NCBI GenBank assembly: GCA_008632985.1
Contig: QPGO01000091.1
Coordinates: 1-64,000, forward strand
Length of the DNA stretch: 64,000 nucleotides
From: Psammoneis japonica
Lineage: Eukaryota
Direction of reading: 5' to 3'
The notes beneath the pieces were generated by a model. The model searched no databases. It saw only the letters and a program-made list of their open reading frames with translations, and had not been told where the DNA came from. Position numbers and translations under genes: made by a program. Shown here in pieces: positions 1,105 to 28,657 of the stretch; positions within the stretch are counted from its first letter, which is position 1, and every line of letters starts with the position of its first letter.

Positions 1105-1180
1105 CATTTCATTCAGCTCCTGGCCACAAATTGTTTGTGGCCATTTCATTCAGCTCCTGGCCACAAATTGTTTGTGGCCA
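1105..1180 (+). repeat. 2 x 37-bp tandem repeat, each unit with a hairpin TGGCCACAAA-ttg-TTTGTGGCCA
   Basis: Unit catttcattcagctcctggccacaaattgtttgtggc read twice. Confidence 0.9.
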
Positions 1181-2026
1181 ATTTTCCAAGCTGCTGGCTG
1201 GAGTGCCGGTGCACTCATTTGTCTTTCCTCATCATTGACCAAAAAGCATCAACGCTGACGCGATCTCTCTCACAATTGTGCATCATCAGACTGGCTCCTC
1301 TTGGACATGTGATCAAAGGTTTTCCTGCTTCAGTTCTCTCAGAAGAATCATTCTCCATGTCATCAACAAGCATCGGAAACACAATGTTCAAAAGCAGGGT
1401 CGTTGCTCATCTGCACACTCCCCTGGGCAATGCAGCTCCCATGGGTGTCAATGTCCACATTTCCACCAATGTTTGTGTCTGACAATTCCTTGCAGAGGCA
1501 AAATCATTCATTCCTGCCTCTGCATCTCTGCTCCATCCTCAATCTGTCCATCCTCTGCCGCATCGTGCACACCTCTGGCGATGTTTTTTGCATCTCTCAA
1601 CGGAGCTCCCAATTCTGATGCTGCGCCAATGCTTTCTGACCAAGGCTGTTGTTTTCCCAAATTCCATGACACTCACTTTCCATTTCTCTGAGTCACCTCC
1701 ATTGTTTGGAGCAGCCAGGGCTGGCTCGCCTTGCATGTCACTCACTGCAAGATTGACCAAATTTGCTCCAACAACAAGGGTGGCACTGATGACAGCCAAT
1801 GCGTTTCTTTCCTTTTGCACAATCCACCATGCAACAAGGAGAAAGCTGGTGAAAAATTTCCAGGAGTGCAGCAACAGATTGAAAATGCTTGCCAGCGGTG
1901 TTCCTCAAATGCCGTTTTTTGCTTCTGCTGGTTGCCCCCTGCAAAACAAGGAGCAATGAAAATTTTGATTTGTTCATCATGTTTTAGCGCACATGTTCAA
2001 TGCATCATCCATGAACCAACCATGGT

Positions 2027-2359
2027 TCAGGATGGATTCAGAACTCTGTCACTCTTGTTCTCATTGTCTTGTTTGTGTGACTCGCTCCTTGTGTGACCAT
2101 CAGGATCATCAGGCAAGGCACTCAAGACGAGCTTGAAATGCAATGAGTTGTTTCTTGCACCAGCAACCAATTGCAACAGTTCCATGTCTTGAGAGTGTGC
2201 AAGTCTCTGCTCAAGGTGTTTGTGGATGCTCGCGCATGAGAACAGAAACTCCACTGTCTCTGCCAATTTAATAGCAGCCCTCAAAGAAACAAAAAAAAAA
2301 TGTGCTTTTGTGTCATTCAGCCATCTTCCCTCCTCATGCTCTAAGGGACTCAACTGCAA
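2027..2359 (-). pseudogene. Possible Ulp1/C48 peptidase N-terminal fragment
   Basis: GRWLNDTKAHFF resembles the WLNDxxINFY motif; catalytic H-D-C not confidently found. Confidence 0.3.
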
Positions 2360-3633
2360 ACATTCTGATCACAGATCTGACAAGAACCCTTCCTCTGCTG
2401 GCAGATCACAACCCTTTTTACACAACAGCAAAATGGGGCTGCAACACTCAAGTTCAATGGACACACAACAAGAAGCAAAGTGCAGCAGCATCTTTCCTTC
2501 AATGTTGTGCGACCAAAAACATGTGGCTTTGTCATCATCATAAAAAAGCTTTTGGTTGCTGCCTTTTGTGCCTGTGTTTCAAACAATTTTGTTGATGTTT
2601 CGTTGCTGTCCCTGTCATCATCACTGCGCTTGCTGCGAAGCTGGCTGCAGTGGCTGGCTCCACCAATTTGATCAGACCTGAACCATCCAACAAAGAATGC
2701 ACCCATGCTTTGTCTTGAAGTCCAAACAAATGTGATGGACTGCCAAGGTCAGTGTTGGAATGTTCAGACCAAAGAAGTGTGTGCTGCATTGCAAGTTTCG
2801 TGAAACAATGCCACACAAAAAGGAGACGAGAGAGCATGGCATGCTCTTTGTTTTTCTGTAGAAATGAGATCTTCCTCCATGTTCCAAGTTTTCCTTGATC
2901 CTTTTTTGGCATGTCATCCAGGAGGGTGTCTCTGACCTTCGGTTAAAAAACAATCCAGGACCCTCGCTTTCTTGCAATGACAGGAGGCACCGGGGTGAGG
3001 CATTTGAGAAAGCACGTTCGTTTGTGCAGAGCATTTTTGAACCAGGCCTGTGGGGAGCATTGACCATTGTCTGTTCGTGTGTCGTTGCAGGTCGGTGCTG
3101 CACGGTGTGAATGCAGGGCCCTGCTGCACTTCGAAGTACGTGCAGTTGGCAATGGTGTTGTGCCGGTGCATGCTCGTGTGCCGTGCAGTGTGTGATGTTG
3201 TGTGGGCGGTGTGTGCGTGGGTTGTGTCGGTGGATGGTCAGACGGTTGTGACGTTGTGACCGTTGTCAACTGCAGATGGCGCCGAGCATGGTGACGTGGA
3301 TCGCCATTGTGCCAGATGTTTCATGTTGAGTTTGGGGCAGTGCCGCAGAACATTTTTGCTCGTGATTGATCATTGTGTGATGCACATGGTTGCATGTTGA
3401 ATGCAGATGCATTTCTGAAAAGCTGTCACGTTGGAGCCTGTTGCATCAAGCAAACCGGAGTCTGGATCTGGAAGGCAGTGTGACGTGTTTGCGTGTGGAA
3501 CAGCATGATTGAGGGCATGCAGATCCTGCTGGGTTTTCGTGGAACATCGACACAGTTTGTTGTTGTTGGCGGCAGACAGAGAATCTTCTGCATTGGGTGC
3601 ATTGTCATCATCGTAACCATGTCCAGTTGCGCA

Positions 3634-4060
3634 ATGGCTCGCGTCAAGCAAACCGCATGCAAAAATGCCACAGGTGTCGTCGGTCGCAAGAGGTTGCGCG
3701 GCAAAGCGGCAAAGGTTGATTCCAAGGCTGCCGGAAGGAAGAAACGTTGTCGCTTCCGCCCCGGAGTCGTCGCGTTGCGTGAGATCCGGAAGCATCAGAA
3801 GTCGACGGAGTTGTTGATCCAGAAGGCACCGTTTCAGCGGCTTGTTTGTCAAGTGGCTGGTGAAGTGACGAGTGAATTGGGAATGCAGGGGGTGAGATTC
3901 CAGTCGACGGCCATCTTGGCATTGCAGGAGGCTTTGGAAGCGCATCTGATTGGATTGCTTCATGACAGCAATCTTTGCGCTGTCCATGCGGGGCGTGTGA
4001 CCATCATGCCGAAGGATCTGATGTTGGCTTGACGCATTCATGGCAAACATTGCCAGGCAG
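3634..4060 (+). pseudogene. H3: Divergent histone H3-like gene, decayed (TGA at 4030 where canonical H3 has Arg)
   Basis: MARVKQTA.K...[32 protein letters not shown]...[17 protein letters not shown]...[26 protein letters not shown] aligns along the H3 histone fold. Confidence 0.93.
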
Positions 4061-4391
4061 AAGAGAGAGGTTGGTGGCCTCTGGTTGTTGGGAAGCGAGG
4101 AGGGACTTCTTGCGTGGTTGAGATGCAGGGATGTTGTTGCATGTTCGGATGCATTGCACAGTGTTTAAGTTGGCGGTGTGCCAGATTAGAGTGTGTGTTT
4201 GTCATTTGTTGTGTGTGTTTTACGGTGTTGCAGTTCCAGCAGTTCTGGCATTAAAAAGTTGCATGGATCGTTGCCAAGCAATGTGCAGCATTGTGCAGTT
4301 ATGATGAATGGAGAAATGGATGTGCGGAGAGGTGCAGGGTGGGCCGCGGGCCCGGCAAGAGTCCTTTCTGCGCAATGTCCAGAGTGAGTTG

Positions 4392-5230
4392 TCAATCATC
4401 GCAGGCTTCGAGGGTGTCTAGGACGCCCTGCTTCACCGGACTTGCACCATTGGAGGCTTTCTGTTTGCCATCCTTGTCGTCTTCGACTGCATGGCCAAAC
4501 TCGTGAAGGGCGGTGTTGACTTTGTTTGGGCCACAGTGCAGTTCCATGGTTTCTTGATCGGCGCAAATGTCATCTTGGGTGCTGTCCGGGAAGCTGCATT
4601 GCATGACATCCATCGTGTTGGCAAGGGTGAGGTGGTTTCCAAGGTGAGCGTCGCCTGGCCCATTGACAGGAGTGAGGTCGGACCCGACGTCGCAGGGATT
4701 GTTCCACTTGAAATCTCTCTTGACAACTTCGTTCAGGACGTCGCAGAGGCGCATCACCCATTTCCTGCATGGTTCTGGCATGTTCAACTTGGGGTCTTTC
4801 AGGACCCGGACCATGAGGGGCCAGGGCGTTTCGCACACCTGGCTTGGATCGGATTTGGATTTGCTCTCTGCCGACCACACACAGATCGGGTTGCAGGTGC
4901 TGACGAGATTTTTTACGAAGTGAATGCCTGCAATCGACAAAATCTTGGTGGTCTTCAAGGCATCCCACCATGGCTTGGCGAAAGGTGGCATCGTGGTGGA
5001 ACAGTTGCAACTGATGAGCCTTGCGATGATTTCTCCTGATCGAGTGCCGAAATGGTTGATGTGGTTTCTGCTTCTGGGTTTTTTTTGGTCGGAGATTCTT
5101 TGACATCGGTGGCCACCTTGAAGTTCTGTCTGCGTTTGAGCGGCCTGTGGGTCGGCGTCTCACTCTCGGAAGGTGATTTCGATTTAGCGGCCATTGACTT
5201 GGTGCTTCGCTTCTTCGGATCGTTCGGCAT
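4392..5230 (-). pseudogene. Hypothetical TE-associated ORF, frameshifted near 4980
   Basis: Lys/Ser-rich N-terminus (MPNDPKKRSTKS...) followed in another frame by a globular-looking region; no family recognised. Confidence 0.4.
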
Positions 5231-5309
5231 GGTGATGGTGGACGGGGCAGCATTGGGTGTGACTGTGGAAGCAGTGTTGCTGTGGCTTCTTTCGTTTTGT
5301 GGGAGGAGA

Positions 5310-5965
5310 AATGTGTGATCGAAGAAGGGAGGGTTCGCAAATGGTGAGGAGGAGGCGCAAATGGTTGTGTGGGGTGGTTTGTCCAAAGTGCAGAGGATTT
5401 GGAAAAGAGGCAATTGCGTTGATCGTGGCATGACTGGTTTGCAATGGGTGGTGGTTTGTCCGCAGGAGAGAGATTTCGCAATTTCGACAATGGCTTGATT
5501 GGCTCACAAGGGGTGGTTCATCCGATGGAAGTTGGGTTTGCATGCATGGGGTTTTGCAAGGGGTGGGTTGTCTGATGAATGGAAGGTTCTCAAAGGATGC
5601 AGGGGCAATTGTGGTTTGTTTGAAGAACAAAAAAGGCATGTGTTGCTTCCAAGCACAAATCTTGTGGTGTGTCCGAAGATCGGAGGGTTGGGCAAAAGTC
5701 AGTGAAAGGCACAAATGGGTCACAAGAGGTGGTTTGTCCGAAGAAGGGAGGGTTCGGAAATGAGGAAATTGTGATGACTCTGAAATGACTGTTCAGCAAG
5801 ATGTGGTTTGTCCAAAGAAGGGAGGGTTCGCAATTGAGTCAAAGGCACAACTGGTTTGTCGGGGTGGTTTGTCCGAACAATGATGGGTTTGAAATTGTGC
5901 GAGCAAAGGACAAGTGTCTTGCAAGGGGTGGTTTGTCCAAGGAACTGCAGGTTTTTCGCAAAAGA
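5310..5965 (+). repeat. Array of ~11 degenerate ~33-36 bp repeats (AAGGGGTGGTTTGTCCGAAGAAGGGAGGGTTCGCAA-like) with variable spacers
   Basis: Copies near 5317, 5371, 5450, 5510, 5560, 5610, 5664, 5724, 5798, 5861, 5923. Confidence 0.8.
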
Positions 5966-6389
5966 GTCACGGTCCACAATTGTTTCGCAGGGGGGGCGGT
6001 GTCTCGGCAGACAGCGCACCGGCAATTTTGTGCTGCACCTGCACAAGCACGGCAAATTTGCCGGTAACTGATTGTGTGTTGTCATGGTGCCGTGGGCCTT
6101 TACGGTGGTGCTGCAGGCACGGGCATGGTCGCACCGTTGGCAATTGGACTGGTGGCAATGTGGGTGTGTCGACACATGGGAGTGACAGTCGCAATGGCTG
6201 TCGAGTGGGGCATGCACGTGTGGCGTTGTGTGTGGGTGGGACAAGACGCCTTGCCGGAGGTGCTCAGTTGGAATGCAGGCTGGCATTTCGCTGAGGTTTT
6301 TGCACGCACACTTTAAAGACAGTGCAAAGTAAAACACGCAATGGTGAAAATAAAACGCAATTGTCACTGTGATTGAAGCGAAAATGTGT

Positions 6390-9300
6390 GCCCAGCTGAA
6401 TTGGATTTGCCAATCACCCTTGTGCGTTCCGTCGGGAGGTGCGGTGCGAACGAGTGAGTCAAGCCGTTGCCACTCGCCGTCCACTAAAATTTTGTGGTGG
6501 ATTTTTTTCTTGGACAGAACTCGGCACATGTTGGACGCCGCTTGCATTTGGTTTGCAACGAACACAAGGAACTCCCACTTGCAATCACTGCCTCTTGCCC
6601 GACCACAGCCGCACTGTTCGACATGTGATTTTTCCACGTGTGTCTGCTTGAGTTCGCGTGGCTCCGACATGACATCATCGAACTGGGCGCAGATCGTGAG
6701 TTCATTGCCATTGTCATCGTAGCAGGACGTCCTGCCGCACGTAAGAAACCAGCATCCAGGACCGCACGAAAGGTTCTCAGAGACAAATGCCTCCAGTGCA
6801 TGAGCAGGATTTGCCAGTCCGAACAGGGAGAAGAGCCGGATGAGGTCCATTGCCGTGAGGTGGCCCAATCCTTTCAATGTGCGACTTTGTACGATGGTTC
6901 GATGAACCTTGTCAGCTGTTTTGGGCACTGATCTGGTTCCCGAATGCAAGGTCCGTAGCAGCTCCTCTGCGCAATTTCCCATGGCCTCGATGACAGGTTT
7001 GTCTGTGCAAGATTGGACCGCCGGTGGTTGCAACGCGTGGTGGCGGGGGTGGGCACATCTTGGACAGCATCTGTCCCCCTTGCGGCTTGTTGGTTGTGTC
7101 AGTGAGAGTGGCTCGCCAAAGGACAGGCAGTGCAATTCCGCCGCACACAACATGCACAAATTGCGTTCGACATGGATGGCCGTGAAGAAGGCACCGGGTT
7201 GTCCATTGAAGCGGTTCTCCATGAAATTGTGCAGGACGGTGAGGATCAGCCACTGCCCCGGACATTCGCGTGCAACGAAAAGGCACAAAAACACCAAGTC
7301 CCTGGCAACCACCACTGTGGTGATGCATTCCGTGGTGTCGAGCCATCGGAGGAAGCGCAGGATGACGTCGACCGTGCTGGAGCACTTCAGCATTTTAGCA
7401 ATGCGCTCCAAAAGGAAGCACGTGTGTGCCATCATTCAGCTGTCGTGCTCTGCAAATGTCTGTCTGTTGGCGCGCCACTTGCTCAGCCGTTCCATCGTCG
7501 CTTGGGTTGGTCCTTTGTCATCGCAATCAAACAGGTTGACGTCCAACCAAGTTTCGTCCGTGAGGGCGGCGAGGAAGTCCGTGCAGACGCCGCTGGCCGC
7601 AATGGATCTTTCCAAGCTCATTGCTCTGGAGCAGACGACTTGTTTGTTGCAGAACATTGTGCCGAGGTTGATGATTCGGGATCGTGTGCCTGCGTTGAGG
7701 AGGGTCTTCTGTTGTGCCTTGCTGAAATGATTGGACATTTCCACTTTCAGATTGAGTCCCGTGGAATGACAGCACTTGTCCGTGGAAGAATCCCCGGCAT
7801 CAAGGTGCAACCCCGTTAAGTCCGTGACGTGGAATTGCGTGGCGTGGTGTTTCATGCCGGTGATGTCTTCCGCATTCATCTTCTGGCGGAGATGTTTCAG
7901 CATGAACTCTCGGTGTGGGCAGTGCAGAAAATGTTGTGACTCGTCACCGTGGAAGATCGCCGACACGACAAAATCGCGTGCCATGGACGACAGTTCTGCC
8001 ATCTCTCTCAAAAATTCCTTGCTGAGATGCTCTGTTTTTCTGCCGACACCGGGAAACATCACACCTTCATGCTTGCACATGACTTGTGCTTGCTGGTTGC
8101 TTGTCCCGACGTTCAGTGACATCAAATTCCGTTCGCAGTCCTTTTTGGCCGACTTGCAAAATTCGTCAAGGTGCAGGCGGATGATGCGGAACAGTTTGGC
8201 ACTGATGGGTTTCAGCAAATCGTGATGATTTGTTGCTGCAGGTTGGAGTGGATCGTTGGACGGAAAATGGTTCTTGTCATTGCGCAGTGGGATCACTTCC
8301 TGATTGCACTCCTCTTCTAGCTCGGGGATTTTCGCAATGGGTCCCACACCGTGGTGCGTGATGTTGAGAAGTTTGCTGAGCGTTAAATTCAAGGGAGTGC
8401 ATTGGACAGCGCAGATCTTGTCGACGTGTTTTTTTTCGGAGGAACTTCCAAGCGAGGCAGCCTCATTTGAAGTGAAGCATGGAAGTTGCTTTTTGCAACT
8501 TGGGAGCAAAATGGAAGAGACACCAGTCGCACATGTCGTCCATGGTGCATCGCGTTTCGTCCAGGGCGGTTTGTCGGAGTTCCATCATGAAATCCCACCA
8601 AGTCTGGTTTTCCCGGCAAGCTTCGAAGCGACGTTTGTTGCGCTGCGATTTCTTGGATTGTCGTTCGAGTTTCCATTTCTTGTGATCCAACTCATCTTGT
8701 AATTTCTTCGGAAGCCACAAATCGTCTGAACAGTTTGACAGATCGTCGTCGCAATCCATGACATCACAATCTTCTTCTCAGGAACTGTCATTGTCTTCAC
8801 TGTCCTTTGGATCCGGCGGCAGTGTGAAGTTGTAGACGTGCTGTTTGTCTGCGTTTGGTCGTGATTGCCTTTCATTGTGGCAGACGAGGCATCGATGCTT
8901 CTTGTCCGTAAGATCCTGACGAGTCGTGCATGTTGGACACGTCCATTTGCGTGTGACAGGAAGTTTCGAAGTTTCCTTGGGGTGCGTCGCTTTGTTTGGA
9001 ACAGTCTTGGTGATGTCAATGCCTTGCTTTTTTAACGAAGCAATCGCAAGTTTTTTCTTGCGGCATTTTGTCTTCTTGCGTTGGTGTCCTTTGTTGACAC
9101 AACATTTGCGAGTTGTGTGTCAGTGCTTCTCTTTGGGAGGCAGCAAGGATGGGTCAAACTTGGGGACTGGAGGACCGATGCCGTCCACGGAAGGCTTCAA
9201 ATGCCATCCGTTCGTGTGCAAGGCCAGAGTCATTGGCATGGATGGAATGGGCAACAACCTGTGGATCGGAGGACTCGTGCCGTCCATGGAGGGTTTGAAG

Positions 9301-9700
9301 TGCCACTCGTTTGTGTGCGAGGCCGGTGTCATTGGCACGGGCGGAATGTGCAACATGCTCTTCGGGAATGGTTGCATCGTCGCACTCCGAGTGAACTGCG
9401 AAAGGTGAGGCAACGGCGGCCATTTTGGCGCAAGGGGACATGGTCGAGGTGGGGTTGGCGTTAAATTGTTGAACTCTCCAGCTTTCATGTGGTGCCCATG
9501 TGACGTGTTTGCTCCAACTGCACTGGCATGGCATGTTTGAAATTGGTTTTGTGTGACAGGTGGCATCGGAGTTGCACTGTGTGGTTCTGTCTGGTTTGGA
9601 TTCGGAGGGTGCTTGGGGTTTGGCGAGAGTTTGTGCTGTTGATGTTTGGGCATGGCAGGGTCGATGCAGTCAAGGCAACGGTGTGTGGCACCTCAACAGT
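6390..9700 (-). pseudogene. Large uncharacterised protein, copy A: HxD (TET/JBP-like) motif plus HhH-like helical region
   Basis: Consecutive ORFs 8463-8759, 7436-8509 and 5720-7435; TGLHLDAGD (~7790-7815), LKGLGHLTAMDLIRLFSLFGL (~6816-6877), VEQCGC (~6605-6622); low-complexity N-terminus. Confidence 0.5.
9145..9350 (-). repeat. 2 x 99-bp (33-aa) coding tandem repeat
   Basis: IPPVPMTPASHTNEWHFKPSMDGTSPPIHRLLP / IPSMPMTLALHTNGWHLKPSVDGIGPPVPKFDP. Confidence 0.8.
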
Positions 9701-9958
9701 TCCAAGTCATTGGTGGCAGTGGCGGAGGGTGGTGGAGGACACAAGAGGGGCAACGGATGCACGTGCATGTGGCATCTCATGGCGTGGCATGTTGTTGCGG
9801 CGGGAATGTTCTGCATGACATTGTGAGAGATGATGTCATCACAATGTTCACATGTTAATTGTCCCATGTGCACTGCAAAAGTGGAAATGCTTCACACAAA
9901 GGAGGTTGCAAGAAAAGTTCAGCATTTGCCCTGACAATGAATTTGCTGACCAAATTCA

Positions 9959-10003
9959 TTTTTGATGACACGTGAAGGGTGCATTTAAGGAAAAGACAAA
10001 AAC
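9959..10003 (+). repeat. Left arm of inverted repeat (partner 13069-13113)
   Basis: tttttgatgacacgtgaagggtgcatttaaggaaaagacaaaaac vs reverse complement of partner tttttgatgatgcgagaagggtgcatttaaggaagagacaaaaac. Confidence 0.9.
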
Positions 10004-10537
10004 CGAATCACAGTTGTTGGTGTCGATTGTTTGGAAACTTGCTTTGTGTGCGTGCAGTTTTCACTGCAGTTGCAGCAATTGTTGGGGGCAACAAGACCAT
10101 CATCAGGGCTTCTCTCTGTGTCTTGCTGCAGAAAATTGCACTTCATGGCAGCTGCTGCAGCAACCACTGTACAGCACCGGTGCTGCAGTGCTGTGGTGCG
10201 GTGTCGCATGCATCCGCTGCAGTTTGCAGCACAGACCAGCAAGTGACAAGTGCCACCGAGACAACTGTTTTTGTTGGCGTCTTCGTGACAAGTCATTGCT
10301 GTCTGCATTGCAGTGTGGTGGTGGCACTGTGTTATGACAGGTGGTTTGCAGTGCAGTGCAACAATGGTTTGTGCGAGTCGCAAAGGGACCGCACAAGAAC
10401 TTCAAGAACCACATCCAGTTGGCAAGAATTGCCAACAAGACAATGCTCCGGCAAAGGTCATGAGGGCTTGTGAGGCATCTCGCAAATGCTTTCACAGACA
10501 CAGCAGGGGCCTGCCTTGATTGCGTTGCAAGAAAGGA

Positions 10538-11218
10538 ATGGCGTTGAAGCGATCAAAAAGGAAAGCATCTGAGCAAGCGCAACATGCCACAAGTGGTGCA
10601 GATGGCACAGAATGTGATTTGTTCAAAGACTTTCGAGTTGATCGCACGCATCCGGAAAAGGTAAAAAAACATGGAAGTCATTGTCAATGGACCTCAATGT
10701 TGCCTGTGGAGGTTGATGGTGTGTCACAGAAGGTCACCGTGAAACGACATGACAAGAACGCCACGCACAAGTTGTCCATTCTGTCCAAGAAGGGTGTCAT
10801 GGAAGATCACATCTTGGCAAAGTCCCTTCCTGTGAAGGACGTCATTGATGGTGACGCCCCTCACATGGTGGTTGCATTGCATCATTTTGAAAAGGGCAGC
10901 ACTGTGGGAGTGCATGTCGGAAAAGAACGGAGCGTGAACGCTTCTGAGTTGGAAAAAGCCTCGGTGTGTGTCCAAAAATGGCACCGGCACTTTTTGAAAC
11001 AGAAGGTGGTCAGAGATGTTGTGATGGGAATCGATGCAGCAGGAGGCATTGCATCTGGACGTCCCTTGCACCTTGGAGTGCATCTTGTCAACGACCCTGC
11101 TTTGTCTGGCGGGAAAGCGAGTGAAGCGAACTGTGAAGCAAAGACGGATGGCACCGTCGTCACTGCGAAAAGAGTCCATCCGGGACAAGAGTTGCTTTTC
11201 CATTGTGACTGGCAGTGA
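10538..11218 (+). pseudogene. SET-domain protein, decayed
   Basis: HLVNDP...ANCE...VVTAKRVHPGQELLFHCDW matches the SET NH..NC / GEELxxxY C-terminal motifs, with Y->C. Confidence 0.75.
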
Positions 11219-11219
11219 A

Positions 11220-11907
11220 CATGTTTTAAATTAAAGTGTGGTTGCAACGTCACACAGTGTGGCAATTGGCACTCCCGCCCACAAAAAGGACAACTTGGAG
11301 GTCCTTGAGAACTTCGCATCCAATGGCAGAGACAGCTTCGGTGGAAAGCATGAAGGCACACATGAGGCACAGCCACTTTGCAGTTGTCGTTGTCTTCCTT
11401 TTCGAAAGGCATTCTGCACATGCAGCATTCTTTGCCAGCGGCTCCCATGGTTGTCGGAAGGTTGCTGAAGCACTGATCTTCACAGACAATGCGTTTGATG
11501 CAATGAAGTTTGCTTGGATGAGTCTTCTTGCAAGGATCGCATCGGTTGATGGGGGGGATTCTCCGGAGACGCCTTGGTTCCGAAGTGTCAATTGGAGTGT
11601 GTTTGTTGCATGGAACCCAAGCATCTTCCTTGCAATCAACCCACCTTGTTTTTGTCCTCACGTCGTCTTTCCCGAATGCCTTGGGTCCTTGCAGTGCTTC
11701 AGCTTCATGTTTGATTTTTGCATTTCCGTGTTCTGCCAGGATCATTTTTCCGATGGGAGGCCGTTGAGACTTGAACGAAGCATGTTTGGTGGCAGCCCAA
11801 CAGACACGCTGCAGATGCGCTCCAGCCCCAGGTGGGAGCTCGTAGTGCTGATGTGTGACAACAATGACTTTTGTCATCCGTCGCATGTTTCGCACGCAGA
11901 TTTCCAC
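11220..11907 (-). pseudogene. RING-H2 finger protein, decayed
   Basis: CCMCRMPF...CLHAFHRSCLCHW...SCPFCG (C3H2C3 spacing) at ~11265-11435. Confidence 0.8.
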
Positions 11908-11998
11908 GTGTGATGTTTAAAAAAAATTGTCCAGACTCGCTGTTTTTGCGAAGCCCCAGACGTTTTACATGACAAATTTGCAGAAACAACAACGCGCT

Positions 11999-12031
11999 AG
12001 TTGCATTCTTCAATGTCTGAAGAATGCAACT
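11999..12031. other. Perfect 14-bp stem hairpin
   Basis: AGTTGCATTCTTCA-atgtc-TGAAGAATGCAACT. Confidence 0.9.
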
Positions 12032-13068
12032 GGCCAAGTAAAAAATGATGCACTTCAATCATGTGCGAGTTTGTGCGTTCGCAAAATTGCCTCATTTTCT
12101 GTTGGCGATCATTGACATTTTAATTGCCGCACAATTTCACTGCGGAGCTCGCACGCAGAAGTCTGCGGGCCCAATGTCACACGGATTCCCACCCACGTCT
12201 GGAACGCGTCTGCATCTCTGCCTTTTGTTTCTTTTGTTGTTCTTTTTTTTGAGCCGTTCCTGCTGCATGATGTCAGAACACGGAGTGGAACTTGACTCCC
12301 CATCAGTTGTTGTTTGTTTCACGACGTTGTGACGATGCTGTCATGTTGATGTGTCACAAGAAAGTGCAGCAGTCAGTGAGAGGTTTTAGGGTCGGTGGCG
12401 CTGTCATCCGTTCTCGTGCTTCCTGTCAGTGTGCTGCCATTGTGGAGTTGTGTCTGTCAAATGAGTTGGGGTGTCGTGAACGGGTGCACATCCATTTTGT
12501 GCGGTTCATCAGTCTTTGTCTGGGAGTCATCCGGCGGCAAAATGATGCTGGCAAGGAGTGCGCGAACAGGCGCTGTGACTGCATCACTGGAGGACAACCG
12601 CAGCCGTTGTCCAGTTGGCTTCATGTGAGTTTTACATCCGAGTGTAGTGCAATCAAACTTAGATTGTGTGCCATTGTCACCACGAGGAGAGCCCGCTCTC
12701 TGCCAGTGCCACAGCGTGTGAGAGAGTGGGCGCTGTGACTGTGTGTGCAGCATCACTGGAGCGCAACAATTGCAGCCGTTACACTGTTGGCTTCACATTG
12801 GTTTTAGCCATCCAGAGGGCTGACTCAAATTAGTTTGTGCTGTGTCGTCAACTGGCCAGCACTGCTTTGCTGCACTTGCAGTGCTGCATGTTTCTGATGT
12901 GAACGCTTCCAACTTGGCCATTGTTTTGCATGCTTCATTTGTTCAAAGTGCACCGTTGTGATCTTCAATGCCGTCATAGGATCGTTGTTGCGCAAGCCAC
13001 AATGTAGCACATGTCGGCTCAGTGCTGCAGTGCAATTTACAATGTTCAACACGAACAATTCTTGTGCT

Positions 13069-13113
13069 GTTTTTGTCTCTTCCTTAAATGCACCCTTCTC
13101 GCATCATCAAAAA
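13069..13113 (-). repeat. Right arm of inverted repeat (partner 9959-10003)
   Basis: Direct reverse-complement comparison. Confidence 0.9.
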
Positions 13114-13337
13114 CGATTTTGATTGGCCGGTTCATCTGTTAAAATGTCCATCGGGACGGCACTGTGCCAAGACAATCGAATCAACAAAGTTTGTCCGTAG
13201 CACGCATGTCTAAATGTCTCGAGTTGTGCTTTGACAACTTGGCGAATTTGCCAAATTATGGAGGGTGTCGTTCAGTGCTGTGTTGTGGTTGTGTGTCGAA
13301 CTGCACGACATTGTTTCACGCATCGTCCACAATGTTG

Positions 13338-16300
13338 TCAATTGCTCTGTTCTGTCAATTGTCTGCAATGACGGCAAGCTTTGTTCATGTCCCAACTGTC
13401 CTCTTTCCAGTTGTGGTCTTTCGATTGACTGAAGCCAGCAAAAAACGCTTCTGCAGATGCGTCAGGCTTCAGATCTGACACACGCTGAATGGATTCCCAT
13501 TTTTGCATTTCAAAGCAACCTGTCAAAAGCAATTGCCTGTTTTCTGGCAATTTAACTCTGCTGCTTCCCACATGCAGTTTGGCACAAGTGCAATTGGCGA
13601 CTTGTCGATGTGACATTGCGAGTGTCTCATGGTCCAAAGTCTGTCCCTTGGCTTTGTTCGCGGTCACGGCGAATCCCATTTCTAAAGGAAATCAAGGCGC
13701 AACGATGCATCGCGATGGAAGACATCCTGGTCCACCTGGAATCGGAGCGGGTTTCGGTTCCTTGGTTCGCATTGGAGAAACCGGCATCACCACCTCCCTT
13801 TTTACGATGGATTTGTCTCTCAGCAATCGCAATGTTTCACTGTCAAAATCTTCGGGATCCAGTTCGATGTTTGCCATGACGGGTGGCTCGGACAGTGTGA
13901 CGACGGTGCCAGCCGCACCATTCTGCTCAGTGTAAAAGTCGACAAGGTCCACATCAAGTGGATTGCTGATCGTCGAAGAATGGCACTTGAACTTTCTCCC
14001 GTTTGCCATCTTGAGATGTGCGCCAATCTTGCCGGCAATGCACCCGGGACCACCAGCAACAAAGTGCTCATGGAATGCCATGTCCTCCATGGCCTGTGCT
14101 TCACAAGCCTGGGCAGGTTTCTGTTCCCATTTCATTGGTTTGGCAGCCAACCATCGAAAGACAATGGCACCTGTGTGCCGTGCAAATCGAACCGCTGCCT
14201 TGTGGTTCAACGTGTGACGTTCATGATTGGCAACGACAATTGTCGGAGCCGTCAACCATGGACTGTTTGGCTTTGCAAAATCATCTTCCGAGAGCAATGG
14301 AATCGATTTGCAGCAATCAGGATCAATCCGTTCATGATGATGGAATTTAGACAACAGCTCCGTGTGATGTGGATCCTCACAGTGCAGTTGTTGTTCGAAT
14401 TCGATCCATTTGACCGATGCGAATGTCTCACACCCAACGCGATGCGGAGAACCTTCTTGCAATCGCGCCTTCTGCTCTTTGGTCCACTTCTTCACTCTTT
14501 TGTTGCTGCGAACCTTGCCCGCTCTCTTCCATTTGTTCCCGTTGCCCGTGAAGAGGAGTGTTCACCCGGATGTTTCCAACATTTCTGCATCTCAAACCCA
14601 ATTCCGTCTTTCCCTTTCCATTTCTTGATGGTGTTTGTAAGCCGCCACTTCCATTGAGGCACTGGTTGACAAAGGTCCAGCCACAATCGGTCCATTTTGG
14701 TCCAGATCCCCAGCAAATGAGACAGGAATGCCTCCAAAAGGCATGTCGATGTTTCCAGTGAATTGCTGCAAAGTCCAGCTCAATTGCGCAAGATGCCACA
14801 GAGCCTGATTTCCGACTTCGTCTACAAAGAGCAATGTTGGATCCTTCAACAATGACTTTAATTTGTTCAGTTGATTTGCGGTGAGATCAACAAACTCTTT
14901 CATTCTCATTGCCGTGTTTTGGCCCAGAAAGATCAAACAAGCTGTTGTCGGTCCGCCGATGTCAGTCGCATTCATCCCATTGAAAGCCGTCCAAGGAATG
15001 TTCCTGGATTCAAGAATGGACAGATCAACAGCATTTTTGAGACAAAGGCTTTTGCCTGTGCCTGCCGCGCCGTGCACCAACACCATTGCCGGCACACTGT
15101 TGTTGGGATCTTCAGGCACTTTTGCCCATGCCGAATGAAGGTTGAACACTTCCCAGTGTGCAGGCGCAAACAATTCCTCTCGGCTTTTCATTGTCTTCTT
15201 TGTCGCTTTGTGCTCTGTGTTCCGCTTTCCAGGCATTGTGCCAAGGCCACCTTCATTCGATGGGTGTTTGACGGAAGTGTTTGTGTTGTTGTCTGGCTTG
15301 CAATCTCTTGTGTCTTTGCTCATTTTCTGACACCATTTGATCGAGTTGTCTGCGGTGTCATTGTGAAACACCAGTGGCTTGTTCCGGCTGTTGTGGTGCA
15401 TGGGAACAAGTCGGGCGTTGTGGTTGCCACGCCAAGGGTTCGTGGTGTGACACACAGACACCATGTTGCGTCTGTCTTCCAATGCTTGCAGGATGCTCTG
15501 GTGACTCTTCTCTGACAGCTTGCGATTGACGGTTTCGAACACCATCTCATCAGTTTCGTTTCGCTCTCGGTTTTTTAAAAATTGTTCGATTGCAAAATCC
15601 GTGGACCATCGTTGCTTTTGTTCTTCGGTCCAAAGCATCTGATTGCGTCCACGACACTGAGCCAGCATCCACTCATTTAAAAAGCTCATGTGAAGCCCTT
15701 GCATTCTAGTGTGCATGGCAAAGAGTCTCGTTTTAGACACAACAGACTGGTCGGTTCGCAGTTCTTCTGTCCATTTCGCTGATGCAGCCCAATCATGTTC
15801 ACAATGGTTCACGTGAGACGACTCATGGCATTCCGTTTCTGGATGGCACTCGCACAAATGGAATCGTGCAAACTTGTCAGCTTTTGCTTTCCACTGGCGG
15901 CATTGCATGCTGGTGCGAAGTTCATCACACGGTTCCTTGCCCGGATGGGGGGGGATGTTTTTCTGTCAAGATGACCGTCTTCTGCTTCTTGTCCAGCACT
16001 TGAGCACACTGACTTGCGACAGGAAAACTCGGCGCAAAGGCGAAATTTTCGTCCGTGGTCCTCCCTTCTCCTTGACGGACACAAACACTTTGCACTCATT
16101 GCGGTTCAACATGCGCAGCTCTGTGCCATGATTCCCGTAAAACGCCGCTTTTGGAATCAGATGTTTTGTTTCCAAAGTGTCGCCATTGGGTGGCTTCTCT
16201 TTCAACGTGAACAAACGGACGGTGCCCAGGTTTGCCTGCATCAAATCGTCTTCATTGCACTGATCCGCGTCATCTTCCTTTTTGTCTTCCGCATCTTCTG

Positions 16301-19300
16301 CCGATTCCTTCTTGTCTCCTTCTGTCTCGTCTTCTTCATCACTGTCTTCACACCCGTTGCACAAATTGTCAATGAACATGCTGTCTTCCAAGTCGCGTCT
16401 CTCTCTTTGTTCCAACAGCCGTTCAAACAGTCGTTCCATGCGCTGTTTGCCATCTTCCTCCATTTGGATTAGAGTGCTGTGAGCCCGGTCGCAAGCCGGA
16501 TTGCTGCAAACAAATTTCTCCAAAGCAATGATGCTCGGCAGACCCAGCAAGTCGGCACACATCTGGCAATCGGACAACTCCATTTGCAAGTTCATCTTGT
16601 TCATCACATGTTGGAGGACTTGTTTCACACTGCATCCGGAGGTTCCTGCATCGTCTGCCTTGCTGGCGCACTGCTTGGCGTGACTGATGGCTTCTCGAAA
16701 CAACACCATGCAATGTTGCAAGGGATGCTTGCGTTTGCCCATGCACAGGCATGTGCAGAAGATGGCTCCTTTTGCTTGTCCAGTGCTTCCCAACAACTGA
16801 CAGTTGTCATGAGAGCCGGCGCAGCAGGAGATGACGACATTGAACATGGAAACATTGCCATTGCCCTCCTTTACAAAGTCAAGGAGTTCCAAACAAAATT
16901 CAGTCAGCTTCTCCTCCATCAGTTTGTCGAGAGCCATCCACAAAGATTCACGATTGCGACACGTGTCCGAGACGCCATCTCGCAACGATGCCAGCATTTC
17001 ATCTTTGGACATTTCTCCACCGTTCAACCGATGCTCAATGTCATCCAATTGCACACGCGGTCTTTTTGTCTCCCACGCTGTCACAGAATCTTCCATCTTT
17101 CTTTCCAAAATGTCAATGGTCTCGTGCCGTTCCGGTTCGTTGTTCCATTCCATCTCTTCTGCATCACACAGATTGCAGTCTTCCTTTTCTTCTTTTTGCA
17201 CCACACCTGCTGTTTGACTTTCCTCAGCCCGACTGCCATCGTCTTCTTCTCTTTCAAGCACCTCTTTCTTTGGCACCAAACGCACTGCTCCAGTCTCTTC
17301 TACAAGGCCGGCTGGTTGGGACAAGCGACAACCACTGCTGCCCATTGCACCTTGGTGGCAAGTCAGCATGTGATCGTGCATTTGTTGTTGGCCTCCTTGC
17401 CCAGAAGTTTTTTCTTGCACTCATTCATGCTGCACGTGTCCTTCTGGTTCCATCACTTCTAACGGATTCAATCTTTCTGGCAATGGATTTCGATTCACCC
17501 GTCCAAGACATTCTTTGGAAAACCTGCAATCGTCTCTCTTCTTTTCGACAATCTGCTGCATGCCACAATCGAAAAGCACTGGCCTTTGCAAAGAGGATTG
17601 ATGCATTTGATCCAGTGTCTCTGACAACGCTTTGCAAACTTCCTTCAAATGTGCAAAACGCTGCATTGCATGTGGATCAATCCCACCGTGAAACAACAGG
17701 TGGCAATGCAGAGTTCATTTTTTGTGATCTTCCACAACAGCGATGTGCCCAAGACAATGGCCAAAAATGCCCTTGTTTGTGATTTAAAAATGTCAAGTCT
17801 TTCGACGTGACTCACTCATGTGTCGAGAAAAGAAGTTGTCCAGCGGCATTCCCAAAAGCAATGCACAGACATCGTTGATCAACGACTGACTCTCCGCCAC
17901 AAACACGACGGGGTCTTCAATTCCTTTAGAGGCACGATCCTGTCTGGACAAACCAGGCAAATTGATGACTCCTGCGCCAACTTCCGCAGACGCACATCTC
18001 ATGTTCTCCATGAACTCTTCTCCACTGCGACCGCACCCCGAACTCTCATCAAAGACCACCGGAAACGTCTTGTTGTTGACAGTTCGGAAAGTCATCTGAA
18101 TGGCATGAGGATTCCCACAGTCGTCAAATGACAATGTCATGAAACAAGACAGAAGGCCCATTCTTTTTGACATTTCAAGAGTCATCGATGTCAACTTGCT
18201 GGATTCATTGCAACCATGTGACGTGTCCTTTCCCATGGGTCGAAGATGTCCCAGATGTTTCTGCTGAAAGTCTTTTGCTGCTTTTCCACCTGGATTTGCC
18301 ACCACTTCATCAAGCTTCTTCAATTCGGTTTCGTCTCTGAGCAGGCTTCTGATCATTGCAGCAGACTGTTTGCTGTTTCGGACGTGAGAATTCACTTGAA
18401 AAATTGCTTCGAACCGTTTCTTGCTGTCGAAACAGCAAGCCAACAACCTCCTGTCCAACGAAGGCACTCAAGTGAACTGTCGCAAAAGATGGTTTCGTTC
18501 AATGCAGTTCAGTTTTCCCAGTGCTTTGTCGCACATGCGTCCAAACATAAACACGTTGGGGAACGTGGTCGCCACCACAAAATCACTTGCAGCAAATTCA
18601 TTGATCGGATCACTCTCCCGGCAGGAAGCGATGGCATTGACATGTCATTGCAATCATTGCACGGTTTTATGTCATCCAAAGGAGAGTGGTCTTCCACGGC
18701 ATCATTGTCTTTGTCACTTTCCGACATGACATCCTCCTTTTCACTGTCATGAACGTTTGCAGGGTCAGGCTTGCAATCTGAATCTGCCAAACACTTTCCG
18801 TCCGCATCCTCGCCCTCTTTCCTGCTTGACGATTCCAACTCTGATGCGGAACTTCTGGAATCGTTGTTGCCGCTGCTGCCGACAGACCAATCAGAATCGT
18901 CAGAATGTTCCCCATCGCTTTTAGCACTCACGTTCTCTTCTGCTTTTTGTCCCTTGTGCCGACATGCTGACTGTTTAAAAGATCGAAGACAAGCCGTTCT
19001 CATTGTGATTTTGTCTTGATGAGTTGATCCCGCACTGTCCGCAATGCAGAAAAATCTCATGCTGTCACTGGGTTTTTGTGTCTCCACTTCGTCCCGTTCT
19101 TCTTCATCGGCGTTGTCAGTGTTCAAAATTTCTTCTGATTGTGCTTTTGCAACATCAGAGCTGATGGCATCTTCATCTTGTAAAATGGCTTTGTCCTTCA
19201 CGCGACAAGCTGAATCTTTTATGTGCTGCACAGCGATGCCTGCATTGTGCTGCACTTTGGCACAAGACACGCCAATGGAGCAATTGCCTTTTCCCCACAA

Positions 19301-22006
19301 AATGGCATTTAACGCCGTTGCCCATCCACACAGATTCCAAGCACGTCCAAAAATGTCATTGCGTCCGAAAGCTTCCTTTGCCAGTGTGTCAAATCTGCCT
19401 TCAGGGTCCAAGAAATAGAGCCGTGACACCGACTTCATAAAATTAGGATGAAACATGTCTTTCACACTCAAAATCTCTCGGATCGTTTCTGGAGCATCAT
19501 GGGCAAACAAAATGCAATTGCATTTCAAACAGCTGTGATTGAAATTTACATGGCCACGGCGATTCGAGGAAATCTTGATCGTTGATGCAAACAACCGATT
19601 GCGTGATAAAATGAGCTGTTCATGCAAGTTCAATGGCTCCAAATCCAACCGTCTGAAATCCCCGCGGCTGTCAACAGTTTTGGTTGTTCGGCCTTTTCTT
19701 CTAAACACTCATGGCACGTGGGACACAAGTGAGTGAACTCCTTTCCGGCATCATCTGTGTCTGCCAATTCCAGATGAAGATGGTGCCATTCACCAACAGA
19801 TTCTTGGGACTCGTACATGGAGTGCCCTTTTGTCAAATCAATCGTTTTGAATTTGCCATTTCCATCTGCCAGAATTGCCACATGACCCAACTGTTTCCAC
19901 CATTCCAACTTCTGCATGTCTTCGTCCGCACAAAATCGCAAGGGCCCCAAGATTCCATTCTTCAACCACACCCTGGTGCACTTGATTTTGGGTTCCGCAG
20001 GTCTTTCCAACATCCGAATCCCGCATGCTCCACAAGCAATCATGCACCCGTTCGTGTGTGTGAATGACACAGAAAAAAACGTTGCAGCATGCTTGCCAAT
20101 TCTTCCTCACTCATTCCCTCTTTCGAAATGTCACTCACAATTCTCTCGACATCCACCTCTTTTCCGTCACATTTCTTGTCATGTTCTCCATGACGATCAA
20201 ACTGAAGACAGCCTGAATTTACATGATGCAACAACAACAACCTCAGAACATCTTTGTCGAAATGCTCAAAGAAACCATTTGTCTTCAGGATGTTCTTCCA
20301 TTTCTCGCAATTTTTCCATCAAAAATGCTTCAGACACGTGGTCCGAATCCAAGCCTCGAATCTCCTTTTCGGCTTCATTCAATTCATCCTGTCGTCATTG
20401 CAATGCCTGTGCGGCTTCACGCTGCAATCTCTCCTGATGTTCCTCCTCCGACTCCTTGCTTCGCAGATCTGTTTTGTGCGCCGCCTCCCGTTGCAACCTC
20501 TCCTCACGTTGGTCCTCTGACTCCGTGTTCCGCCGGTTCACTTTCTGCGCCGCCTCTCGTTGCAGCCTTTCCCGATGTTCGACCTCCGACTCTTTTCTCT
20601 GCCGATCCGCTTTGTGTGCCGCCTCCCATCGCAGCCTCTCCTCACGTTTGTCCTCCGACTCTGTGTTCCGCCGGTCCGCTTTCTGTGCCACTTCTCGTTG
20701 CAGCCTCACCCGACGTTGGACCTCCGACTCTTTGTGGAGCTGACCCGCTTTGTGTGCCACCTCCCGTCGCAGCCTCTCCTCACGTTGGTCCTCCGATTCT
20801 GTGTTTCGCCGGTCCGCTTTCTGCGCCGCCTTGCATTGCAGCCTTTTCCAACACTGGACCTCCGACTCTTTGTGGAGTCGATCCGTTTTCTGTGCCGCCT
20901 CCCGTCGCAGCCTCTCCTCACGTTGGTCCTCTGACTCTGTGTTCCTCCGGTCCGCTTTCTGCACCGCCTCTCGTTGCAACCTTTCCCAACGTTGGACCTC
21001 CGACTCTTTGTGGAGCCGATCCGTTTTCTGTGCTGCCTCACGTCGCAGCCTCTCCTCACGTTGGTCCTCCGACTCTGCGTTCCGCCAGTCCGCTTTCTGC
21101 ACCGCCTCTTGTTGCAACCTTTCCCGACGTTGGACCTCCGACTCTTTGTGGAGCCGATCCGTTTTCTGTGCCGCCTCCCATCGCAGCCTCTCCTCACGTT
21201 GGTCCTCCGACTCTGCATTCCGCCGGTCCGCTTTCTGCACCGCCTCTCATTGCAACCTTTCCCGACGTTGGACCTCCGACTCTTTGTGGAGCCAATCCGT
21301 TTTCTGTGCCGCCTCCCATCGCAGCCTCTCCTCACGTTGGTCCTCCAACTCTGCGTTCCGCCGGTCCGCTTTCTGCACTGCCTCTCGTTGCAACCTTTCC
21401 CGACGTTGGACCTCCGACTCTTTGTGGAGCTGATCCACTTTCTGTGCCGCCTTCCGTTGCAGCCTCTCGTGACGTTGGTCCTCCGACTCTGTGTTCCACC
21501 GATCCGTTTTCTGCGCCGCCTCTCATTGCAACCTTTCCCGACGTTGGACCTCCAACTCTTTGTGGAGCCAATCCACTTTCTGTGCCGCCTCCCGTTGCAG
21601 CCTCTCGCGACGTTGGTCCTCCGACTCTGCGTTCCGCCGATCCGTTTTCTGCGCCACCTCTCGTTGCAACCTTTCCCGCCGTTGGACCTCCGACTCTTTG
21701 TGGAGTCGATCCACTTTCTGTGCCGCCTCCCGTTGCAGCCTCTCGCGACGTTGGTCCTCCGACTCTGCGTTCCGCCGATCCGTTTTCTGCGCCGCCTCTC
21801 ATTGCAACCTTTCCCGCATTGGACCTCCGACTCTTTGCTCTGCAGATCTGATTTCCGTGCCGCCTCCAGTTGCAGCCTCTCTCGACATTGGTCTTCCGAT
21901 TCCTTTTTGCGGCATTCTCTGCGTTCGTCAGCTCCTTTCTTTTTTTCCACTGTTTTCTTGCTGCCAGTCTCTTAGACTCCTTCGCCTTCTCTCTGCCCAG
22001 ACCCAT
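13338..22006 (-). mobile_element. Helitron RepHel gene, decayed (STPR repeats, DUF6570-like region, HUH Rep, PIF1 helicase)
   Basis: Rep: GLLSCFMTLSFDD, GIFGHCLGHIAVVEDHKK*TLHCHLL (17682-17771), HDHMLTC..CRL, AIFCTCLCMGK. PIF1: HGAAGTGKS (~15050-15075), LLFVDEVG, PFGGIPVSFAGDLDQ, MGFAVTANKAKGQTLD, KLHVGSSRV. Several stops and frameshifts. Confidence 0.9.
20400..21950 (-). repeat. ~21-22 tandem 69-bp units encoding 23-aa STPR-like repeats, with 138-bp higher-order alternation
   Basis: QREERLRREAAQKTDRLHKESEV alternating with QRRERLQREAVQKADRRNAESED. Confidence 0.88.
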
Positions 22007-22153
22007 GTTTCACAATTCAAACTGCCTGAAGCAATTCTTGCAACGTTCATGCACAATGGAGCCATTGTGCGCTGGCCTTCAAGTCATTTTATCTCGCACG
22101 GTCACGCCCACCACAAACAATCAGGCACACAAGTCACAACATCGTCAAACACG

Positions 22154-22232
22154 ACAGACACCAGATGGCCATTGCTTTTTATGACTCAGACACAACAGAC
22201 ACCAGATGGCCGTTACATTCTATGACTCAGAC
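22154..22232 (+). repeat. 2 x 41-bp tandem repeat upstream of RepHel
   Basis: acagacaccagatggcc...atgactcagac repeated at 22154 and 22195. Confidence 0.85.
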
Positions 22233-22702
22233 CGTTTTTGATGCACAGGGCCGGCTGGCGTTGCTCACTGTACGAGCAGCGACAGGGAAAAGCATGCACA
22301 GCACGGCAGATGCCACATCTGGGGCTGCATCGAGGTGCACGGACACTCTTTTTTTCCCAATTTACCACCAAAATGGCGCATCACACAAAAGCACTTGTTG
22401 TTCAACATGTTTTTTACAATGTGCGACTGTCTCGTAGAATTCACAACTGATTGTGTCTGTTCAAACTTGAGTGAAGTTTTTAACATGCCACGCCAGCAAT
22501 TCCAATTTTAAAGCACTTTCGAGCTCTCCCGAAAAAAACCGTTCCACACACCCGTCGTAAGGAATTTGTCAATTTTTTAGGATGTCCCCACGACCTCTCA
22601 TGTCCTCAATGATCATTCTACGAATCCGAAGAATTCATCTGTGCCAAACAACCCACCCCGTTCTAAAATCTGAGGGACACACTTTCAAATTCAGACGGAC
22701 AA

Positions 22703-22751
22703 CCCGACTGCCCGACTGCCCGACCCCCGACTGCCCGACTGCCAGACCGAC
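22703..22751 (+). repeat. (CCCGACTG)n short tandem repeat
   Basis: cccgactgcccgactgcccgacccccgactgcccgactgcc. Confidence 0.85.
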
Positions 22752-23016
22752 ACGAAAAAGTCTGCAATCACCAACCACTGAGTGGTCAATGAAATTTGAG
22801 TGGTTGGCAGTTGGCAGGCGCGCATGATGACGTTGCCACGAACACAATGGAGTCGTCGCTCGTCGCTCGTTGCCTCTTGCCATTGCATGCTGCGGGGATG
22901 TTGTGTGTTTCGCAATGACTGCACTTGCCGGCTGCCGGCGTCAATGCATGACCATGCTGTCTTGATGACTGCAACAAGTCTTGAGCGACGAAACCTGTGA
23001 GAAATCTCAAAAAGCA

Positions 23017-27568: not shown

Positions 27569-27929
27569 GGTGAATAGGTGATCTTCAATCTGTGTTCGCT
27601 CTGTGCTCTACTGTGCGCTTTCGACATCGCCAGCCTGGCACACACACAACATTAACATACAGCCAAACTGACAAACAAAGATACCGTCGTGCCGCGCATG
27701 CACCGAAAGCACGCACGCGACTGGCTGTCAAAGTGGTGCTGCTGCTCCATCCAACGCCAAAAGGGCAATCGTTCAGCTAGTCTACGTAGGCAGCTCTTTC
27801 GTAAACGGTGTAGGCCCATGCACCAGGGTTTGTGCAGAATTTGACAACAACAGCAATTCCATTTTTTGATGGCAACAAGTGGAAATCTGCACAGATTTCA
27901 GCTGGGCGCAAATTTGATGGTGGTGATGC

Positions 27930-28418: not shown

Positions 28419-28657
28419 TTGATTTTTTGTCGAAGACCTCTCTCCTCAATGGACCAGCGCTGATGTGGGCCGCATCAGAGCGGGGAACAATTTGCCCGGG
28501 GGCAATTGAACAATTTGGGCTGCCTTTGATCTTTAATTTGGAGCTCGACTGCATTGTGATGAATGAGGCAACACCCACGTGCTCAGTTTTTAATTTGTTT
28601 CCTTCACTCCGTTGATTCCACCAGCAGCTTTCAATTTGCCAGTTTGTTGCCAAATGT

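Follow-up and report, generated by a model that had tools for sequence, protein, structure and literature searches.

A decayed Helitron2-type element of Psammoneis japonica carrying a divergent histone H3 gene and genes for a TET-like candidate, a SET protein and a RING-H2 protein

Features at the locus

The stretch of DNA analysed in this work (the window) comprises 64,000 nucleotides of Psammoneis japonica (GenBank assembly GCA_008632985.1, contig QPGO01000091.1, positions 1 to 64,000 of the forward strand) and contains, at 3042-22792 on the minus strand, a Helitron2-type rolling-circle element of 19,751 bp in which the transposition gene RepHel is accompanied by five accessory genes, among them a full-length variant of histone H3. 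Other contigs of the same assembly are given as C followed by a number, and published sources are cited from excerpts. The features of the element, in plus-strand coordinates of the window, are:

3042..22792, minus strand: whole Helitron2-type element, inserted TT|TT without target duplication
22768..22792, minus strand: 5' terminus, consisting of a T, an 11-bp asymmetric terminal inverted repeat (ATIR) and a hairpin with an 11-bp stem; homology with the copy on C203 and with non-autonomous copies stops here
22310..22792, minus strand: segment (the 5' 480 bp of the element) in common with a HINE-like non-autonomous family of about 650 bp
13338..22009, minus strand: RepHel, broken, with STPR repeats, DUF6570, HUH/Y2 Rep region and PIF1 helicase
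11231..11808, minus strand: RING-H2 gene, its 3' end overlapping the 3' end of the SET gene
10520..11218, plus strand: SET-domain gene, motif I (GxG) degenerate in all three copies
6449..9692, minus strand: gene of about 1,080 codons with a Pro-rich/RanBP2-type zinc-finger N-terminus, a predicted HxD 2-oxoglutarate-Fe(II) (2OG-Fe(II), TET/JBP-like) domain and a C-terminal region with a helix-hairpin-helix (HhH)-like motif
4392..5503, minus strand: unknown open reading frame (ORF), frameshifted, found only in the three family copies (window, C177 and C203)
3634..4062, plus strand: full-length divergent histone H3, with a premature TGA at 4030
3042..3069, minus strand: 3' terminus, consisting of the subterminal ATIR copy (here with a 1-nt deletion) and an 8-bp palindrome

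RepHel, recognised already in the original prediction, was identified in a Pfam scan of 30 window ORFs by matches to PIF1 (E 3.9e-10), STPR repeats (E 5.7e-17) and DUF6570 (E 0.0026). An HUH-like motif is visible in its translation, and Helitron_like_N was matched at E 0.19 only, on the C203 copy, in which a 980-bp insertion with terminal repeats (C203:13254-14233) lies at the Rep catalytic region. No match to a C-terminal endonuclease (APE, Helentron sensu Thomas 2014) was found in the three ORFs past the helicase, where decay may mask one.

Element boundaries and class

The element was delimited as 3042-22,792 because of its termini, the limits of its homology with the C203 copy and a TT|TT empty site, the end positions being uncertain by the flanking T's. 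The 11-bp ATIR lies 1 bp from the 5' end and its 3' copy 27 to 16 bp from the other end. The 5' stem has a folding energy of -4.3 kcal/mol, which was equalled in 20 of 200 shuffles and so is not above chance on its own. Folding predicted no stable 3' hairpin; the 8-bp 3' palindrome is kept in the window, C177, C203, C9 and the short copies. The 3' motif of the short non-autonomous family corresponds to window 3042-3069, the same point at which C203 homology stops. The empty site was obtained from five paralogues of the flanking repeat, each of which joins the left flank directly to the right flank, TT|TT, base-exact. The two halves of this repeat lie outside the element and were defined by the paralogous empty sites:

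2650..3041, unstranded: left half of the host repeat that the element interrupts
22793..22834, unstranded: right half of the split host repeat

In a DNA search of the genome, the right flank (22800-24300) matched nothing besides itself. The single element of more than 20 kb that had been predicted over 2027..22006, with its ends left to be sought by multi-copy alignment and empty sites, was thus recovered as one large element with both termini and an empty site, at a size of 19.75 kb and with a 5' end at 22792, past the predicted limit.

Helitron2 elements are defined by ATIRs of 8-15 bp, the 5' copy 0-2 bp and the 3' copy about 20-30 bp from the end (PMC3627910). The element has this ATIR spacing, a RepHel, and, in common with that group as the excerpt describes it, a 5' T, short ATIRs, a 5' hairpin that includes the ATIR, a T-rich target without duplication and non-autonomous partners of about 650 bp. 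It differs from the group, in the same excerpt, in its five accessory genes and in a 3' hairpin shrunk to an 8-bp palindrome.

Other copies of the element and its short partners

A DNA search of the genome with the H3 region returned three places, namely the window, C177 and C203. C177 is 96% identical to window 1-20,902, as far as the end of that contig; an independent insertion was ruled out by the same left flank and several of the same premature stops, and C177 is probably the same insertion as that of the window, either a haplotype or a segmental duplicate, which contig depth cannot tell apart. The C203 copy aligns with window 3039-22,792 in blocks of 79-92% identity, has internal deletions (helicase included) and three insertions, and lies between different flanks. 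It is an independent insertion in which H3, the unknown ORF, the TET-like gene, SET and RING are colinear, in the same orientation and between the same termini.

These copies bear on the proposal that the genes are unrelated nested insertions beside a Helitron. Nesting does occur here, in the form of a 401-bp miniature inverted-repeat transposable element (MITE), the three C203 insertions and a putative Ulp1 ORF that lies outside the element (see below). For H3, the unknown ORF, the TET-like gene, SET and RING it is refuted by the termini, by the same gene order and orientation in an insertion with other flanks and by the base-exact empty site, and we give it next to no credence. The block is one Helitron2-type rolling-circle element that moved as a unit with five accessory genes; the prediction that these genes and RepHel form one element is borne out, and the outcome named there as speaking against it, occurrence of the genes independently of RepHel, did not hold for these five genes.

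A 1.6-kb non-autonomous sister element with both termini and an H3 fragment in the same orientation was located at C9:451149-452750; its 3' terminus matches that of the window element in 25 of 26 bases, its 5' region at 69% and its H3 fragment at 66%. The family of about 650 bp gave at least 47 matches (40 scored of 147 candidates), with both termini no more than 900 bp apart in 25 of 28 loci, two pairs of which overlap. Six of its loci (L042, L043, L052, L054, L061 and L064) are nearly unmutated, implying recent mobilisation. No intact RepHel of the window element's family was found in the assembly, from which the active partner may be missing.

Mutational decay

The ratio of observed to expected (o/e) TpA is 0.01-0.22 per kb in window 1-24,000, against 0.4-0.76 in most host-gene bins, so that the continuous mutated block noticed originally is TpA-depleted throughout this interval. 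Decay was counted in the short family by comparing 14 copies with 6 TpA-rich ones (20 of the 28 loci, omitting three that did not have both termini and five that were tandem or overlapping). In the 14 copies, 238/336 TpA sites had become CpA or TpG and 95/546 CpG sites TpG or CpA, compared with 139 changes at 6,945 other sites. The H3, SET and RING genes of the window have no tyrosine left, and all in-frame internal stops in its H3, TET-like and SET genes are TGA codons for which one or more of the other copies have CGA. Because these stops read CGA elsewhere, the family ancestor would have had open frames; it is supported by the alignments that the accessory genes were originally whole. The element was killed in place by TpA to CpA/TpG and CpG to TpG/CpA mutation.

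In Bigelowiella natans, TpA hypermutation likewise consists of T/A to C/G transitions confined to TpA in foreign DNA, and an adenosine deaminase has been proposed for it (bioRxiv 10.64898/2026.01.13.699255). The process here differs from that account, as excerpted, in that it targets transposons and is joined by CpG decay. The element and its short partners offer a clean measure of the direction and rate of the TpA mutator.

The histone H3 variant

The H3-like gene predicted at this locus encodes a full-length H3 (Pfam Histone, E 1.3e-29) that shares 59 of its 92 fold residues with host H3. Its tail keeps K4, K9, K18, K23, K36 and K37 (K36N in the C203 copy). Changes include T3V, S10N, K14V, loss of the K27 ARKS motif and a loop 1 longer by 5 residues. 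Eleven H3 matches were found in the genome, five of them host genes in normal DNA and six in TpA-depleted DNA; one of the matches, on C10, has no RepHel match in the stretch examined around it. Three transposon H3 lineages were distinguished (the window family, C9 and C201), all without K27 ARKS, all with K4 and most copies with K36. Position 27 is V in the window family, E in C9 and N in C201, and is the only one of eight tail lysine positions altered in all three.

Between the window H3 and the H3 of the C9 sister element, synonymous divergence (dS) is 1.59 and nonsynonymous divergence (dN) 0.32, a ratio of 0.20 over 77 codons; against host H3 the ratio is 0.18. These are simple Nei-Gojobori estimates on a short alignment. 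Within the family, dN/dS is 0.40-0.53 in cargo and Rep alike, a value confounded by the context mutators and not counted as evidence. The comparisons between lineages support the view that H3 was kept by selection while inside transposons.

The zinc-finger, TET-like gene

The HxD ORF (7436-8584) and the HhH-motif ORF (5720-7435) are parts of one gene, interrupted here by a TGA where both other copies have CGA; C203 has a 716-codon open frame spanning the join. What had been called HxD/HhH copy A is therefore a single gene, and no second copy was found among 999 six-frame segments of the window. The HxD ORF had no match in the Pfam scan. A search of 1.84 billion protein representatives gave six matches, three of them credible; P0002, P0005 and P0006 were dropped as repeat-driven or unrelated. 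One of the credible three, P0004 (921 aa), is a colinear homologue free of mutation, with a RanBP2-type finger. Its best genome match is the window gene (E 4.9e-32), and all seven genome places that match it lie in TpA-depleted repeat blocks. Among 8000 scored candidates P0004 matched nothing but itself, its locus was found neither in metagenome (0/41 pattern matches confirmed) nor in viral contigs, and a word-index search with the window HxD ORF returned 0/1300 candidates. An Atlas search was led by an unnamed cluster (0.90) and KDZ-transposase clusters (0.87-0.88), which were rejected for low recognition; a second Atlas search gave no match, and a PDB sequence search of the TET-like gene gave RanBP2-type fingers or nothing.

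An AlphaFold model of P0004 has a mean predicted local distance difference test (pLDDT) score of 46, with many blocks of 65-90 in residues 241-470. Compared with 48,161 chains, it matched TET2 at Z 7.3 (root-mean-square deviation (rmsd) 4.5, 193 residues aligned), NgTET1 at 6.5 (rmsd 4.5, 175) and CcTET at 6.1 (rmsd 5.5, 203), followed by FTO (5.9), CMD1 and AlkB (5.8). HxD is present in the window, C203, C59, P0004 and P0001, and is HxN in C201. An upstream HG motif occurs in all seven rows covering it and might, by permutation, replace a distal His. From the model and these motifs, the protein is likely a 2OG-Fe(II) dioxygenase, for which a TET/JBP subtype is favoured, not proven. The C-terminal motif G-[LF]-G-H-L, kept in five of five in-frame rows, we take to be HhH-like from its likeness to the HhH consensus; structure comparison identified no fold for this region from the low-confidence model.

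The window protein is 33-38% identical to that of C201, with synonymous sites saturated and no blastn match; that this gene, too, was kept by selection while inside transposons is supported by the alignments. TET-like relics on C19, C59 and C169 have no RepHel match in the stretches examined.

A different substrate has to be weighed at this point, namely that the dioxygenase acted on adenine or thymine at TpA (for example by removing N6-methyladenine, 6mA) and so countered the TpA mutator instead of silencing by 5-methylcytosine (5mC). The heavier loss of TpA than of CpG sites in the 14 non-autonomous copies and the nearly equal scores of AlkB-family folds and TETs are in keeping with it, as is the oxidation of both 6mA and 5mC by CcTET (PMC12730594). 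We consider it very improbable, since nothing ties the TpA process to a base mark, an adenosine deaminase having been proposed instead (bioRxiv 10.64898/2026.01.13.699255), and since all copies of the window family are heavily TpA-mutated.

SET, RING-H2 and the cargo of other families

The SET gene, expected from the original prediction, gave no direct Pfam match in the window. Its protein shares 35% identity over 109 aa with P0012, itself a Pfam SET match above the cutoff (27.1 bits against 22.4), and related SET copies match Pfam SET at E 0.01-0.09 in 4/4 cases. GxG of motif I is found in P0012 and in six copies of a second Helitron family and is missing in the window, C177 and C203, and from this residue pattern the SET protein of the element may be catalytically inactive. 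The predicted RING gene is likewise present, with a zf-RING_2 match (E 1.5e-4) below cutoff and C3H2C3 ligand spacing intact in translation.

The SET gene has 33 further genome matches, ten of which pair with a helicase match of the second, multi-copy Helitron family. In that family SET (32-41% identical) has the same strand as RepHel and, for 10 of 21 helicase matches, lies 10-16 kb upstream; no H3, RING or TET-HhH match was found in the two copies examined. At C41:284199-286940, in the same family, an HxD-containing ORF is arranged head to head with a methyltransferase-like ORF, and the TET-like profile of the window gene finds no match in this HxD ORF. A candidate rolling-circle element of a third kind lies at C201:69000-86219, a 16.5-kb TpA-depleted block with a RepHel-like ORF that ends in GIY-YIG and has no tblastn match to the window RepHel. 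It includes a divergent H3 of its own (K9R, K27N, long loop 1) and a TET-like/HhH gene; 3.7 kb of it is shared with C59 at 86%, and it has a gene order in common with the C169 relic.

Such sharing is what would be expected if the genes were an accessory pool swapped among mobile elements, possibly drawn from large viruses, selected for something else or before capture, and hitchhiking without concerted action on chromatin. Another Helitron family has the SET gene too, 32-41% identical, the third family has the TET-like gene and an H3, swaps of TET genes between transposon superfamilies have been described (PMC12730594), and SET may be catalytically dead. We nonetheless hold this account to be doubtful: the H3 divergence between sister elements with the same termini is mostly synonymous (ratio 0.20), whole-gene capture has been called exceptionally rare for Helitrons (PMC6431247), and four of the five accessory genes have chromatin- or ubiquitin-related domains.

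Proposed function

The element is an epigenetic-enzyme-bearing Helitron, and the H3 variant is its most unusual part. Our preferred reading, to which we give somewhat better than an even chance, is that a Helitron2 moved as a unit with its five genes, expressed them when active as a counter-silencing kit, and later died. The H3 variant, lacking K27 ARKS and with an altered K9 context, would form nucleosomes poorly marked by silencing methyltransferases. The TET/JBP-like dioxygenase would oxidise methylated bases on element DNA, and the HhH-like region could perhaps bind or excise these bases. The role of the SET protein would be to write a histone mark or shield it, and that of the RING-H2 ligase to attach ubiquitin to chromatin or to silencing factors; the kit as a whole would keep RepHel transcribed. 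This action of the cargo is deduced from sequence. Trimethylated H3 K27 (H3K27me3) and H3K9me2/3 mark transposable elements in the diatom Phaeodactylum (PMC4504042), and TET-bearing Helitrons have been proposed to escape silencing (PMC12730594). Selection on the H3 and TET-like cargo is supported; the predicted manipulation of the element's own chromatin is still conjecture. We think it unlikely that the stronger form of this reading holds, in which the lineage would encode a "silencing-proof" H3, acquired at least twice, together with a rearranged TET-like-HhH oxidise-and-excise chain, a SET reader or writer and an E3 ligase, and would rebuild its own chromatin.

A number of observations weigh against a counter-silencing kit. 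The kit failed to shield these copies from either mutator, and the window-element family is low-copy, with three places of which two are probably one insertion; the far more numerous SET-bearing family has no H3 match in the two copies examined. Support for the TET fold is modest, given the pLDDT of the homologue model, Z scores below 8 and the closeness of FTO and AlkB; Foldseek with the P0004 model gave nothing at E<=0.001, the alignment has no conserved His at the usual place after HxD, and the HhH call is by motif only. SET motif I is degenerate. K9 is retained in the window-family H3, two of the three H3 lineages are related to each other, and a lysine at position 26 remains in two of them, which another gap placement makes K27. 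As the H3 tails have only 16-22 of 39-40 residues the same as host H3, the loss of one lysine can be chance.

The wide differences of H3 loop 1 and tail, beyond the silencing sites, also suit a cargo that serves transposition, by packaging or stabilising a circular intermediate or by opening target chromatin, with H3 as a packaging or decoy histone. A full-length H3 under selection agrees with this, and circular intermediates have been described (PMC6431247). It seems to us quite unlikely, given that the family of about 650 bp has spread widely without cargo in cis and that a TET-like enzyme suits mark removal better than packaging.

Transposons with one epigenetic enzyme (TET or SET) are already known. 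If the counter-silencing reading is true, mobile elements counter silencing at the nucleosome level, with a histone variant, a DNA-base oxidase, SET and an E3 ligase, and an H3 variant without the K27 motif should resist Polycomb Repressive Complex 2 (PRC2) in a diatom where H3K27me3 marks transposons. Countering of silencing at the nucleosome level is better known from viruses.

Known relatives

TET/JBP genes are encoded by Helitron1 and Helitron2 elements of fungi (Kojima 2025, PMC12730594) and by Helitron2-2/2-3_cRei of Chlamydomonas (bioRxiv 10.1101/2022.06.16.496473). The element resembles these as a rolling-circle element with an HxD dioxygenase of putative TET-like fold, read as anti-silencing. 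Relative to the excerpted descriptions, its dioxygenase has a RanBP2-type finger and an HhH-like region in the same chain, lacks a Pfam match and an evident distal His, and travels with H3, SET and RING. Among Helentron-group elements, a SET gene lies inside proto-Helentron-Pi of Phytophthora and histone sequence inside Helentron-Cq-32A of Culex (Thomas et al. 2014, PMC4067079). In the Culex element this sequence consists of fragments of H4 and of the H15 family, 244 and 87 bp long, which are interrupted by stops and frameshifts and share 83-84% identity with host genes (PMC4067079); by comparison with that excerpted account, H3 here is whole, long diverged and, by the ratios above, apparently under selection. 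No report of a whole selected H3 in a Helitron, or of H3, TET, SET and RING in combination, was found in open-access text, a search that did not extend to subscription journals or Repbase Reports.

Nested insertions and neighbouring sequence

Two further features were annotated in and beside the element:

11809..12209, unstranded: MITE of 401 bp, nested, of very high copy, with a 5-bp target duplication; absent from C203; bin depth 70,982 against about 100
2027..2368, minus strand: "Ulp1-like" ORF, outside the element, about 670 bp past its 3' terminus; identity unsupported

The Ulp1-like fragment had been counted as part of the element and is here placed beyond its 3' end. Neither Pfam (at E<=1) nor PDB (at E<=10) gave a match to it, the window and C177 are the only places that have it, and its resemblance to Ulp1 is confined to a short motif. 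It falls within a TpA-depleted repeat left of the element (window 1-2650), which on C177 goes on for about 750 bp (126050-126803) and is followed by host genes.

The MITE, at the 5' end of the RING gene, is a later insertion. Its family of about 400 bp is also found at C203:21698-22104 and 22504-22895; the first of these keeps its TpA sites (o/e 0.73) and so was inserted after most of the mutation.

Adjoining the 5' end of the element, window 22969-24162 (plus strand) is a TpA-depleted single-copy ORF with a Glyco_transf_34 match (E 4.2e-8), either a host-type gene struck by the mutator or the cargo of another element. A second long TpA-depleted block extends over window 27800-44400 and includes long ORFs at 31427-32995 and 33304-35601 without a Pfam match. 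Window 61700-63220 (plus strand) holds a TpA-depleted DDE_Tnp_4 (Harbinger-type) transposase ORF (E 9e-11).

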